Origin: Opitutales bacterium
GTDB taxonomy: Bacteria > Verrucomicrobiota > Verrucomicrobiia > Opitutales > PNEW01
Reading direction: 5' to 3'
DNA: 64,000 nt
NCBI GenBank assembly: GCA_965219535.1
Contig: CBDCNV010000002.1
Location: 1,993,305 to 2,057,304 of the forward strand
The position numbers were made by a program, and so were the translations under genes. The notes under the pieces are model-generated. The model saw only the letters and a program-made list of their open reading frames with translations, was not told the DNA's origin and searched no databases. Each line of letters begins with the position of its first letter. Within the stretch, counting starts at the first letter, position 1. Positions 21,291 to 58,841 of this stretch are shown piece after piece.

Positions 21291-21319
21291 ATGAATAAAG
21301 TGGTAACTCTTATACCTCT
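21291..21319 (+). pseudogene. 5' 29 nt (start codon plus first signal-peptide codons) of the OMP gene, split off by IS3 copy 1
   Basis: atgaataaagtggtaactcttatacctct joins in frame to 22669 onward once the IS and one CTCT copy are removed. Confidence 0.8.
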
Positions 21320-21346
21320 TGATCGGACCCCGTTTTTCGTACCAAT

Positions 21347-22312
21347 TTAAGTGAGAGAGTTACCGGGTGTTAATGGTTTTAGGATTGATGTATATGAGAG
21401 ATCTTGGCGAAGTGAGGGCGTAGCCCGAACGCGGCCAAGATCGGAAAGGAATCTGACAAACTCTTGTGGGCTTTTGAAGCCTAAACGACTGTGGGGATGT
21501 TCATGGTTATAGGTCTGACGCCATTGTTCGATTACCACTTGCGCTTCAGCCACGCTGAGCAACACTTCACGGTTCAAACACTCATCGCGTAAGCGGTTGT
21601 GAAACGACTCGATGAAACCGTTTTGCCAGGGACTGCCCGGATCGATATAGATCGCCTTTATGTTATTACCGGACAACCACTGCTGCACTTGATGAGCAAT
21701 GAACTCACTGCCGTTGTCACTACGGATATAGCTGGGAGGTCCCTCCTCTTCAATGGCCTCGCTAAGCACAGAGAGGACATCGGTTGAGGTGAGTTGACGA
21801 GCGACCCGGATATCCAGGCATTTACGCGTATATGTCTTCGCTTCGCTTGAGTGTCGTCGCTTTCAGCTCCTCGGTACATCGATTAGAGTCATCATCTTTA
21901 ATGGACCGCCGTTGTCTGTACGATCATGGACAAAGTCCCAGGACCAAACGTGATTGCGACCCTTTGCTTTAGTAGGTGACCCCGTAGAGACTCCTTGACG
22001 GTGTCTGCCCTTTTTCGGGGGCTTTACCTGCAGCCCTTCTGAACGTCGTACCGCCTGGACAAACTTCCTGCTTGTTGTCCAGCCTTCCTTTACCAGCAAG
22101 GCACGGATGCGCCGGTAACCGTAGCGGGGATGTTTCCAGGACAAGCTCACAATCCGCTCGACCAACCGCTGAGCTTTCTCACTGGCCTGTTTGGGCCGGT
22201 AACTGAACGTTGACCAACTCAGGCTGAGATAAGCACAAGCCCTCCGCAACGAGCACAACCCTTTCTCAGCCGCAGCTTTTACTACTCGTTTCTTCTGCTT
22301 TGGGCTCACCAT
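21347..22312 (-). pseudogene. IS3 orfB (DDE transposase/integrase core) with in-frame TGA at 21863-21865
   Basis: ...NHVWSWDFVHD...IRSDNGSEF...PGSPWQNGFIESFHNRLRDE... gives the DDE triad context. The TGA lies between the first and second catalytic Asp. Confidence 0.75.
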
Positions 22313-22599
22313 TTTTTTGACAGCGTTTCCTCCATTACCTGATTCTTGAGCATTTGATCTGCGAGCAGCTTCTTCAGCTCGGTATGTCAGGCCTTCTCGC
22401 TTGCGCTCGTGAATTCTTTTTCCAGCTCTTTAAATCGCTTCGCATCGGCAAGTTCTAAATTGCCATATTTTTTACGCCAGCGATAGAAAGTCTGTTCGCT
22501 CAGGTTGTTTCCACGGCAGATTTCCTGTACCGTTTTACCGGTATCGGCTTGCCGCAATATTGTTATAATCTGTTCTGTTGTGTATCTTTTTCTTTTCAT
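22306..22599 (-). pseudogene. IS3 orfA (HTH protein) with in-frame TGA at 22387-22389
   Basis: MKRKRYTTEQIITILRQADTGKTVQEICRGNNLSEQTFYRWRKKYG... is a typical IS3 OrfA. The frame continues after the TGA as HTELKKLLADQMLKNQVMEETLSKKW*. Confidence 0.75.
22312..22318 (-). promoter_or_regulatory. A7 slippery run, candidate -1 programmed frameshift site (orfA to orfB)
   Basis: AAAAAAA lies at the orfA/orfB overlap, and orfB is in the -1 frame relative to orfA. This is the canonical IS3-family arrangement. Confidence 0.6.
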
Positions 22600-22664
22600 T
22601 GAGGTTATCTGTTTATCCCGATAACCTCTCTCTGTAAATGATACGATTTTTGGGGGTCACTCCA

Positions 22665-23821
22665 CTCTTCTGATATCGCCCTTATTATTTGGAGTTTACG
22701 CTCCTATCCCGGAACAAGAACAAGGTACGCCATTAACGATCAGTTTGAAAGCCGGTGGTTTTTACGACACTAATATTTTTGGGAATTTTACGAATGAGAT
22801 AGATAGTGGAGCGATCAGTTTTGCGCCACAATTTAAGTATAATGCTTCGCTTTCCGAGCAAACATTTTTATCCGGATTGTATAATTTAGAAATTATCTCC
22901 TACGATAATCGTCCCACGGATGATCTTCTTTTTAATAATGTGCTCGGTCTTAACGTCTATCATTCGTTTGCGCCCAACATTAATTTTCAGATTTCTGAAA
23001 ACCTCTCTATTATTGATAATCCGGAATCGTTGCTTGTAGGTGTATTACAATCTAACCAGTCTTATAATCATAATCTTTTTAATGTCAGCTTAGGGGTCGA
23101 TTTATCAGAAAAACTGGGAGCTGTTTTCAAATTTAGAAATACAGACTTTGGCTATGATGATCAGAGTCTTGGATCACTTCTAGATCGCAATGAGCATCTC
23201 CTGGGCATTGAAGGAGATTTCAATTTGTCGCCCATCATGACCGCAGTCGGGGAATTTCGTTATCAAGATATAAACTATGATCAAAACGGCTTCGATAAAA
23301 ATAGTGATTCGGTTTTTTTCCTGACGGGAGTAAATTACAAACCCGATGAGAAGTTAGATGTAAGAGGAAGGGTTGGGGTAGAGGACCGCAACCGACAATC
23401 CAGCACTGATAATGCAACATTTTATGGTGAATTTACCACGTTCTACCGTTATCAGGAGGAATCGTTTATCTCGGCTGGGGTGACTTACGATATACGTGAG
23501 ACTTCAAATCCACTTAATTTTACTGACGATGAAGTTTTAAGTGTATTTTTAAACGCTCAGCATGCACTTAGCGGAGCCCTTACAGCTTCCGGATCGGTAT
23601 TATATAATGCGTCAGAATTACTTCGCAGAGATCCCACCACGGGCCCCAATACCGAGGATGATACGATTCGTGTAGGCTTTGGCTTAACTTATAAGCATTC
23701 TGATAATTTATCCATTATCATTGATTATGATTATGATAAAACGGGTTCATCCGATCCTGTGCGTGAGGAAAATAGGCACCGCGTCGGGATCAATTTCCGT
23801 TATACATTCGGAATATTTTAA
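22665..23821 (+). pseudogene. Outer-membrane beta-barrel protein gene, 5' end severed by IS3 copy 1
   Basis: The frame is open from the IS boundary (LLISPLLFGVYAPIPEQEQ...). Alternating beta-strand pattern with a C-terminal ...RYTFGIF. The ORF track only recovers it from an internal TTG at 22745. Confidence 0.8.
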
Positions 23822-57036: not shown

Positions 57037-57344
57037 CTAAATCGTTTCCTCATAAATTGTGACCGTAATTTCATCACCGTCTTCATTGATGAATGTTTCA
57101 TCGATGGTCTGCGTCACCTGTTCCGTTCCGTCCGACTTAACATTGTTCTGAGAGACCAAGGTATCAAATCCAGGTGTCGTCGATCCGCTCTCAGCTACTA
57201 CGATGTCGGCTTCGTTCGTCTGAATGAGATCGCCTCCAGCGATCCGCAATCCCGGATTTGACGCGGCAACCGTAAAAGACCCTTCTCCAAATAGAATGTT
57301 TGGCACCGCATCACCTGAAGCGTCGATGTCTCCGATTAAGACAC
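57037..57344 (-). pseudogene. 3' remnant of a surface/adhesin-like protein gene, truncated by IS3 copy 2
   Basis: The minus-strand frame is open right up to the IS boundary (…VLIGDIDASGDAVPNILFGEGSFTVAASNPGLRIAGGD...) with no upstream start. G/D/T/S-rich beta-type sequence. The rest of the gene is absent from the other side of the IS. Confidence 0.6.
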
Positions 57345-57409
57345 TGGAGTGACCCCCAAAAATCGTATCATTTACAGAGAGAGGTTATCGGGATAAACAG
57401 ATAACCTCA

Positions 57410-57703
57410 ATGAAAAGAAAAAGATACACAACAGAACAGATTATAACAATATTGCGGCAAGCCGATACCGGTAAAACGGTACAGGAAATCTGCCGTGGAA
57501 ACAACCTGAGCGAACAGACTTTCTATCGCTGGCGTAAAAAATATGGCAATTTAGAACTTGCCGATGCGAAGCGATTTAAAGAGCTGGAAAAAGAATTCAC
57601 GAGCGCAAGCGAGAAGGCCTGACATACCGAGCTGAAGAAGCTGCTCGCAGATCAAATGCTCAAGAATCAGGTAATGGAGGAAACGCTGTCAAAAAAATGG
57701 TGA
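57410..57703 (+). pseudogene. IS3 orfA with in-frame TGA at 57620-57622
   Basis: Identical to copy 1 orfA. The frame reads ...KELEKEFTSASEKA*HTELKKLLADQMLKNQVMEETLSKKW*. Confidence 0.75.
57691..57697 (+). promoter_or_regulatory. A7 slippery run, candidate -1 programmed frameshift site
   Basis: tcA AAA AAA tgg tga in the orfA frame. The -1 frame reads aaa aaa atg gtg agc... (orfB). Confidence 0.6.
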
Positions 57704-58662
57704 GCCCAAAGCAGAAGAAACGAGTAGTAAAAGCTGCGGCTGAGAAAGGGTTGTGCTCGTTGCGGAGGGCTTGTGCTTATCTCAGCCTGAGTTGGTCAAC
57801 GTTCAGTTACCGGCCCAAACAGGCCAGTGAGAAAGCTCAGCGGTTGGTCGAGCGGATTGTGAGCTTGTCCTGGAAACATCCCCGCTACGGTTACCGGCGC
57901 ATCCGTGCCTTGCTGGTAAAGGAAGGCTGGACAACAAGCAGGAAGTTTGTCCAGGCGGTACGACGTTCAGAAGGGCTGCAGGTAAAGCCCCCGAAAAAGG
58001 GCAGACACCGTCAAGGAGTCTCTACGGGGTCACCTACTAAAGCAAAGGGTCGCAATCACGTTTGGTCCTGGGACTTTGTCCATGATCGTACAGACAACGG
58101 CGGTCCATTAAAGATGATGACTCTAATCGATGTACCGAGGAGCTGAAAGCGACGACACTCAAGCGAAGCGAAGACATATACGCGTAAATGCCTGGATATC
58201 CGGGTCGCTCGTCAACTCACCTCAACCGATGTCCTCTCTGTGCTTAGCGAGGCCATTGAAGAGGAGGGACCTCCCAGCTATATCCGTAGTGACAACGGCA
58301 GTGAGTTCATTGCTCATCAAGTGCAGCAGTGGTTGTCCGGTAATAACATAAAGGCGATCTATATCGATCCGGGCAGTCCCTGGCAAAACGGTTTCATCGA
58401 GTCGTTTCACAACCGCTTACGCGATGAGTGTTTGAACCGTGAAGTGTTGCTCAGCGTGGCTGAAGCGCAAGTGGTAATCGAACAATGGCGTCAGACCTAT
58501 AACCATGAACATCCCCACAGTCGTTTAGGCTTCAAAAGCCCACAAGAGTTTGTCAGATTCCTTTCCGATCTTGGCCGCGTTCGGGCTACGCCCTCACTTC
58601 GCCAAGATCTCTCATATACATCAATCCTAAAACCATTAACACCCGGTAACTCTCTCACTTAA
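57697..58662 (+). pseudogene. IS3 orfB (DDE transposase) with in-frame TGA at 58144-58146
   Basis: The 149-aa and 140-aa track ORFs are in the same frame (both start positions are 1 mod 3). They are separated only by one TGA: ...MTLIDVPRS*KRRHSSEAKTYTRKCLDIRVARQLTSTDVLSVLSEAIEEEG... Confidence 0.75.
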
Positions 58663-58761
58663 ATTGGTACGAAAAACGGGGTCCGATCAATGATGTTGTT
58701 ACTTTTGGTAATTAATAAACCTAAACAACCATAATTATTTATATACTAGCTATTTATGAAA

Positions 58762-58841
<80 letters not shown>

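Follow-up and report, generated by a model that had tools for sequence, protein, structure and literature searches.

The two in-frame TGA codons that interrupt both genes of an IS3-family element in a marine Opitutales (Verrucomicrobiota) bacterium lie in inserted, REP-like sequence and are most likely not recoding signals. The element occurs twice in the window (the whole 64-kb stretch of DNA that was analysed), and in each copy one stop lies in a short block inserted into orfA (mini-insert A) and the other in a block inserted into orfB (mini-insert B). The preliminary description of this DNA had placed both stops in blocks extra to the family consensus, a view borne out here by intact relatives that have neither block; what it missed is the homology between A and B and the wider family, REP-like in its sequence, that is found at five sites of the element. 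The element and its parts are located as follows:

21320 to 22664, reverse strand: IS3-family element, copy 1, 100% identical to copy 2, with mini-inserts A and B
57345 to 58689, forward strand: IS3-family element, copy 2, 1345 bp, TG...CA ends, mini-inserts A and B, no target duplication
57410 to 57703, forward strand: orfA, HTH_Tnp_1 (Pfam), interrupted by TGA at 57620-57622, own stop at 57701-57703
57596 to 57625, forward strand: mini-insert A, TTCACGAGCGCAAGCGAGAAGGCCTGACAT in place of AAC, holding the orfA TGA; mirrored at 22384-22413; also present in L014 (MAG OY829953)
57691 to 57697, forward strand: A7 slippery run, predicted -1 frameshift site between orfA and orfB, upstream of the orfA stop
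57697 to 58662, forward strand: orfB, -1 frame, ATG at 57697, HTH_21 and rve/rve_3 DDE domain (Pfam), interrupted by TGA at 58144-58146
58133 to 58175, forward strand: mini-insert B, TACCGAGGAGCTGAAAGCGACGACACTCAAGCGAAGCGAAGAC in place of one A of the Glu codon of LIDEYTR, holding the orfB TGA; mirrored at 21834-21876

The two copies are 100% identical over 1346 nt, and the stops of copy 2 have their mirror images in copy 1 at 22387-22389 (orfA) and 21863-21865 (orfB), in agreement with the earlier report of an in-frame TGA in both genes of both copies. The characters of the IS3 family (IS407-group-like) are present: a helix-turn-helix protein encoded by orfA, an rve DDE core encoded by orfB, overlapping reading frames with an A-rich heptamer (a -1 frameshift site of the A6G/A7 type), termini (TGGAGTGACCCCC...GGGGTCCGATCA) that form imperfect inverted repeats with TG...CA ends, and a target duplication within the 3-5 bp usual for the family. 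An intact relative (P0004, ~93% identical) scores 238 bits against the NCBIfam model transpos_IS3, for which the cut-off is 160, and, judged by the 4-bp length of its target duplication and by no other character, the element would presumably be placed in the IS407 group under the ISfinder conventions. The duplication, AGAG, lies at 21316-21319 and 22665-22668 around copy 1 (AGAG-TG...CA-AGAG), which upholds the earlier claim that the element has transposed; copy 2 has no duplication (flanking bases acac and atga), and 4-bp duplications surround 11 of 51 related copies. At the slippery site the window lineage has A7, compared with AAAAAAG in the intact reference copies. Unlike a standard IS3 element, the window copy has both of its ORFs interrupted, orfA being translated as ...KELEKEFTSASEKA*HTELKKLLADQML...SKKW* and orfB as ...LKMMTLIDVPRS*KRRHSSEAKTYTRKCL.... 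The orfB stop falls, as had been recognised, between the first catalytic Asp (in WSWDF) and the second Asp (SDNG) and Glu (ESFH), and the Pfam rve match in the window OrfB restarts only past the interruption. An autonomous copy would have an uninterrupted OrfA and OrfAB; with a TGA in each frame, the window copies have neither.

That both stops were carried in by inserted sequence is evident from comparison with intact relatives, which were found both as DNA (1278-bp copies, e.g. L003:1673-2950, encoding an OrfA of 88 and an OrfB of 306 residues) and in a search of 5.8 billion proteins (306-307 residues, ~93% identical). These relatives read ELEKENTELKKLL in OrfA and LIDEYTRKCL in OrfB, so that LID-E-YTRKCL corresponds to LID-VPRS*KRRHSSEAKT-YTRKCL in the window. 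The intact DNA is GAAAAAGA-AAAC-ACCGAG at the orfA site, 3 nt of which are replaced in the window by a block of 30 nt (net +27); at the orfB site it is GATG-A-ATATACG, with 1 nt replaced in the window by a block of 43 nt (net +42). The blocks are therefore real insertions and not normal family sequence with a sense codon at the position of the TGA. The block sizes guessed previously were 30-33 nt for orfA, compared with a net gain of +27, and 42-45 nt for orfB, compared with a net gain of +42. The presence of a stop in each insert is not improbable, since by our arithmetic a stop is expected by chance in ~35% of random inserts of 9 codons and in ~49% of those of 14 codons. It had also been pointed out that both extra blocks are multiples of 3, which is correct for the net gains of +27 and +42, but this is a coincidence, since sister inserts measure +31, +35, +21 and +23 nt.

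These sister inserts became apparent when 48 copies of the element from Opitutales MAGs and marine metagenomes were aligned to the intact 1278-bp reference; close relatives were found only in Opitutales (Verrucomicrobiota) MAGs. Five recurrent insert sites were found, all with related sequences in one orientation:

Insert A, reference position 250, net +27: both window copies and L014
Insert B, reference position 761, net +42: 33 of 48 copies, nearly identical
Insert C, reference position 890, net +31: 37 of 48 copies; a +21 variant has an AGTG duplication
Insert D, reference position 971, net +42/44: 12 of 48 copies; a +23 variant has a CTGGC duplication
Insert E, reference position 1013, net +35: 11 of 48 copies

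Every insert starts with T[AT]CC(A)GAG, most end in CAT, and mini-hairpin motifs (GCGAAGC, GCGAAAGC or GCGCAAGC) lie within them; A and B are homologous to each other. Numerous combinations of the inserts are seen (B, C, D, AB, AE, BC, CD, CE, DE, ABC, BCE and BCDE), each site always carrying its own variant. C and E break the reading frame, and E also holds an in-frame TAG. Every one of the 33 B-bearing copies retains the TGA of B. It is a matter of direct observation that the blocks are insertions, that they are homologous, that other copies contain them and that the frame is broken in sister copies. In B, C, E and a prophage gene described below, the point of insertion comes after the first G of a GAR codon for Glu, and cutting exactly the net length from any of these would leave an in-frame Ala codon. 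Models based on TA or other target duplications (IS630-like) were rejected, as the junctions do not fit them, 1-3 nt being replaced and duplications of 4-5 nt occurring only in the +21 and +23 variants; a derivation of the inserts from the orfA segment or the right end of the IS itself was also set aside, the similarities being short and not judged significant. A cousin IS family (61% identity; MAG CBDDEL; L052, L074 and L076), represented by ~30 near-identical copies, has no such inserts. Single copies of this cousin carry internal tandem duplications of 14, 21 or 23 nt.

Related units are also found outside the IS. In ~475 kb of IS flanks, units consisting of TACCGAG, a small variable hairpin and CGACAT(C) occur 9 times, compared with 2.1 expected from shuffled sequence; they are clustered in alternating orientation (L009 4319-4563 and L051 544-830), and one of them lies on L093, the contig that carries the window's locus. 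Within the 64-kb window the motif was not found beyond the two IS copies. A metagenome scan with the 22-nt insert head, using a pattern that excludes the IS flank, recovered the exact 22-mer in 4 contigs without the IS3 element, one of them with the unit downstream of hpf, another with the unit in the spacer that follows rplF, a third with the unit next to a pair of tRNA-Met genes, and the fourth with the unit within a transposase gene of the IS481 family. In this transposase gene (L097 ~1019-1100), a repeat composite of ~85 nt lies on the opposite strand in the N-terminal helix-turn-helix region; it resembles an extended form that could have given rise to B, C, D and E through internal deletion. 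At the tRNA site (L099 5393-5830), a partial third 3' end, which forms an att-like direct repeat, comes after the two tRNA-Met genes arranged in tandem, and together these enclose ~150 nt comprising one repeat unit and a GCGAAGC-containing terminator-like hairpin. The 22-nt head also occurs inside a 156-residue ORF on two viral contigs (L100 7669-8139, reverse strand, and L101), the 140-residue homologues of which (e.g. L102 501-923), some of them named Puniceicoccaceae or Verrucomicrobiota, are 16 residues shorter and read DAYFA-E-ISARP. The gene is a small, conserved (pro)phage gene of Verrucomicrobia. In its filled form 49 nt stand in place of one A (net +48), in frame and free of stops, and add 17 residues in place of one Glu (VPRSEATTRPGAERTGP). 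Tandem heptamer repeats (TTTTCGA, ATTCCGC and GGTAGTT / CCAACTA) are a further feature of the unit-bearing intergenic regions, with heptamer-rich spots at L051 870-910, L009 4340-4400 and L098 135-216. A literature search with the motif string gave no match, and Rfam scans of the IS region, the intergenic unit cluster and the 4 motif-bearing contigs returned only tRNAs and sub-threshold miRNA noise.

REP units are stem-loops of 20-40 nt with stems of 5-13 bp and a conserved unpaired tetranucleotide of the GTAG type at one end; they are dispersed in many copies, for the most part outside genes and often in inverted pairs, and have an associated RAYT (Y1 transposase) gene. The units described here measure 18-24 nt and have variable stems of 2-4 bp (GGGC-ACA-GCCC, GCG-TGAAA-CGC, GC-GAA-GC) with weak predicted folds; one strand of many of them reads ...CTCGGTAG, with TGTCG... 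at the opposite end. The tetranucleotide GTCG fits the GTMG variant of the tag as given by Di Nocera et al. (2013; PMC3733652). The closest known kind is that of the intragenic GTAG-type REPs, especially those of Opitutus terrae, a genome that these authors describe as highly enriched in GTAG-type REPs and as having the highest intragenic count, its in-frame intragenic REPs adding 7-8 residues as singles and 15-50 residues as dimers (PMC3733652). Because of the 2-4-bp stems and a tag that is only loosely GTAG-like, strict membership is not established, and the inserts are referred to as REP-like. With the Opitutus terrae intragenic REPs and the Rickettsia palindromic elements they have in common the form of short repeats with a stem-loop (~21-24 nt when single, longer as dimers or groups), the occurrence both as intergenic clusters in alternating orientation and as ORF insertions, and, in the prophage gene, a stop-free in-frame unit. 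They also come from the bacterial order that is known as the richest in intragenic units of this sort. In contrast to the Opitutus terrae REPs, they form another sequence family, with 2-4-bp stems of the GCGAAGC type and a CTAC/GTCG tag; also unlike intragenic REPs, the genes in which they are seen here are those of mobile elements, they bring stops and frameshifts, and they keep a separate variant at each of five sites. REP-type units and IS are likewise associated in the REP-targeting elements IS1397, ISKpn1 and ISPpu9 (PMC1525189), where, however, the relationship is reversed, with the IS inside the REP and not, as here, repeat units inside the IS.

Fresh target duplications surround interrupted copies with different sets of inserts. 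The AB, ABC and BC versions in the window's strain, which is represented by samples ERZ25067264 and ERZ25072670, are identical at all other positions, and perfect 4-bp duplications are found around AB (the window copy and L091), ABC (L087, L088 and L093) and BC (several copies of MAG CBDANS) versions alike, so that mobility is independent of the inserts being in frame. Also, the locus that holds AB in the window holds ABC in a near-identical strain, whose flanks differ by 1 SNP in 4 kb, and this exchange at one locus, together with unrelated lesions common to diverged lineages and with an intact copy and an E-bearing copy that adjoin on one contig (L004), argues for recombination among copies; the lesions are signs of a mosaic IS population. 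In two marine long-read samples, at least 22 contigs contain the exact N-terminal 149-residue OrfB fragment. A three-base change of TTGCGG to TTTTAG (Arg to TAG) at orfB codon 22 (window ~57760) recurs in L061, L009, L013, L039, L006 and others; this codon-22 TAG and a +1-nt lesion at reference position 223 are common to IS lineages that are otherwise far apart.

Mobilisation in trans is opposed by the preference of IS3-family transposases for acting in cis, as exemplified by IS911. An intact helper was found neither in the 64-kb window nor at 10 sibling loci from the window's strain, and the search of 5.8 billion proteins gave no ORF with more than 95% identity to the window lineage. Of the two near-complete relatives, neither OY829953 nor CBDANS, which has at least 35 copies and all of them interrupted, contains an intact copy. 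Apart from the inserts, the ORFs of the recently amplified subfamilies are intact, and comparison of lineages that bear inserts gives a dN/dS of 0.12-0.4. In their intact ends, broken transposase, many identical copies and fresh duplications, the interrupted elements resemble non-autonomous IS copies or MITEs moved in trans; they differ from MITEs and defective IS in that their lesions are nested repeat units common to diverged lineages and not point mutations or internal deletions, and from trans-mobilised defective IS in that no helper was found in the two near-complete genomes.

Within the inserts diversity is 0.005-0.03, compared with ~0.10 over 150 nt of flank on either side and 0.17-0.19 for third codon positions in the flanks, which makes the inserts ~10-fold less diverse than the surrounding IS. 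No valley of low diversity was seen in the flanks, carriers and non-carriers show no differentiation, and the inserts are unlinked to SNPs only 10-20 nt away. Low insert diversity in the absence of a flanking valley is not what is expected of neutral junk inherited by common descent.

The surroundings of copy 2 include two further features:

57037 to 57344, reverse strand: 5'-truncated fragment of a host gene, adjoining the left end of copy 2
58762 to 58838, reverse strand: tRNA-Pro(GGG), 72 nt past the right end of copy 2

In MAG CBDANS a homologue of the truncated gene (L009 3615-4307) is likewise interrupted by this IS, elsewhere in the gene and with the IS in the opposite orientation compared with window copy 2. 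Together with this homologue, the missing target duplication at copy 2, the truncated gene on its left and the tRNA-Pro on its right suggest an IS-associated deletion or rearrangement at this site, and possibly a preferred target gene. The identical inverted copies bracket 34.7 kb (22665-57344), a composite-transposon-like layout and a potential substrate for inversion; the intact AGAG around copy 1 argues that no inversion has taken place since copy 1 inserted.

The explanation that we favour, with a confidence somewhat above even, is that REP-like units invaded the transposase genes, that the defective copies were moved in trans, and that the inserts were shuffled by recombination. Insert A in orfA and insert B in orfB bring stops that leave no intact OrfA or OrfAB, so the copies would be non-autonomous with perfect ends; transposase would have been supplied in trans by an intact relative that is now absent or unsampled, and recombination or gene conversion between paralogous copies would reshuffle the insert content. 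Both the helper and the route by which the inserts were installed we infer. Mobilisation in trans, one of three possibilities raised in the preliminary description, is thus the one that we rank first, although the intact copy that it calls for was not seen in the window, at the sibling loci or in the two near-complete MAGs. The missing helper, the subfamilies with intact ORFs and their dN/dS values, the low insert diversity and the site-faithful variants do not fit comfortably with this explanation, and they leave room for a homing-like spread of the inserts and, less likely, for their neutralisation during expression. In a secondary spread, the IS would have dispersed intact and the inserts would then have homed from copy to copy, for example by biased gene conversion that keeps the loop, inactivating the copies progressively; this scenario, which is unlikely but deserves real weight, needs no helper and can coexist with the favoured explanation. 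It would accommodate the AB and ABC versions at the same locus of near-identical strains, the varying insert content of otherwise identical copies, a diversity of the inserts ~10-fold below that of their flanks, the absence of linkage to neighbouring SNPs and the constancy of the variant at each site. It is opposed by two CBDANS subfamilies, one of at least 9 copies and the other of at least 15, that differ by ~12% and yet all carry identical B+C, with subfamily-specific SNPs 8-18 nt from B, so that dozens of conversions with extremely short tracts would be needed; moreover, the replacement of 1-3 nt of target argues for rare, messy origin events, and we know of no nuclease or drive mechanism for such a spread. 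A broader proposition, that the inserts are no dead scars but a new kind of very small (~20-45 nt) site-faithful elements of transposase genes that either home from copy to copy without taking flanking sequence along or are removed or skipped in expression, we consider improbable; either version would explain a diversity ~10-20-fold below that of the flanks, the lack of linkage to SNPs and the amplification without an intact master.

We are more doubtful still that the inserts are neutralised, whether by removal from the mRNA, by translational bypass or by reversible precise excision through a REP-type enzyme, such that the copies would be autonomous and the inserts would serve as a brake or switch. 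Such a process is favoured by the multiplication of interrupted copies where no intact master is seen, by the strong conservation of the inserts, by the otherwise intact ORFs with their dN/dS of 0.12-0.4, and by the Ala codon that net-length removal would leave in B, C, E and the prophage gene. A likeness exists to bypass elements (the T4 gene 60 gap and the 'byps' of Magnusiomyces mitochondria), which are mobile coding inserts of 27-55 nt, often with a stop just inside. Unlike bypass elements, however, the present inserts have no matched take-off and landing codons in the right frames (as judged by eye), no 5' stem-loop and no consistent restoration of the frame. Predicted folding is weak and no secondary structure is common to the inserts, none of them matches Rfam, in no case has an insert been deleted so as to give back the ancestral sequence, the TAG at orfB codon 22 is an additional lesion of the 15-copy subfamily, many older copies bear further lesions of the pseudogene type, and to our knowledge no bacterial mechanism takes 30-45 nt out of an mRNA. 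An intron-like or bulge-helix-bulge model was rejected after folding with 0, 12 and 25 nt of flank, which gave weak structures, none of them shared and none with a helix joining the junctions. Codon-by-codon inspection of B, C and E for bypass or for +1/-1 shifts gave no consistent codon pairs, the apparent AGC...AGC and GCG...GCG pairs being spurious products of the repeated GCGAAGC motif, and internal restart at ATGs created by the inserts would take place in the wrong frames. Leaky UGA readthrough or selenocysteine insertion, through which traces of full-length OrfA and OrfAB with insertions of 9 and 14 residues would be made and which had been suggested as a second brake on transposition, is very unlikely. 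In its favour, each of the two inserts of the AB version has a length divisible by 3 and contains one TGA, and that of B is retained in all 33 carriers; against it, the whole block is absent from homologues, sister inserts are +31 and +35, and ABC and BC siblings with the +31 frameshift also have fresh duplications. Since the frame is shifted by C and by E, a general explanation through readthrough fails, and as frame-breaking versions have moved as readily as AB, it is neither necessary nor sufficient; in addition, insert B splits the LIDEYTR beta-strand motif of the catalytic core, RNA folding places no hairpin directly 3' of either TGA, and a stop is expected by chance in inserts of such lengths. 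An origin in a lineage that reads UGA as sense, also raised earlier, has a negligible probability: nothing but the two in-frame TGAs speaks for it, and it is refuted by the blocks being insertions that are wholly absent from intact relatives. In fact, TGA is an ordinary stop in the host, terminating 15 of the 46 window ORFs of at least 150 residues, with dense coding under table 11, and all close relatives of the element lie in Opitutales MAGs.

As a candidate for recoding the element is therefore ordinary, since its stops were carried in by short repeat insertions. Of wider significance is the repeated occupation of mobile-element genes by a short REP-like repeat, at five sites of the IS3 element, in an IS481 transposase gene and in a prophage gene, together with the observation that the interrupted IS copies still multiply; the population-genetic oddity of the inserts lifts the case above that of a plain pseudogene. 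If a helper exists, these copies would provide a clean natural example of efficient mobilisation in trans in a family thought to act in cis, and if drive or neutralisation should prove true, they would represent a new layer of interplay between repeats and transposons, and possibly a natural brake on IS expansion.
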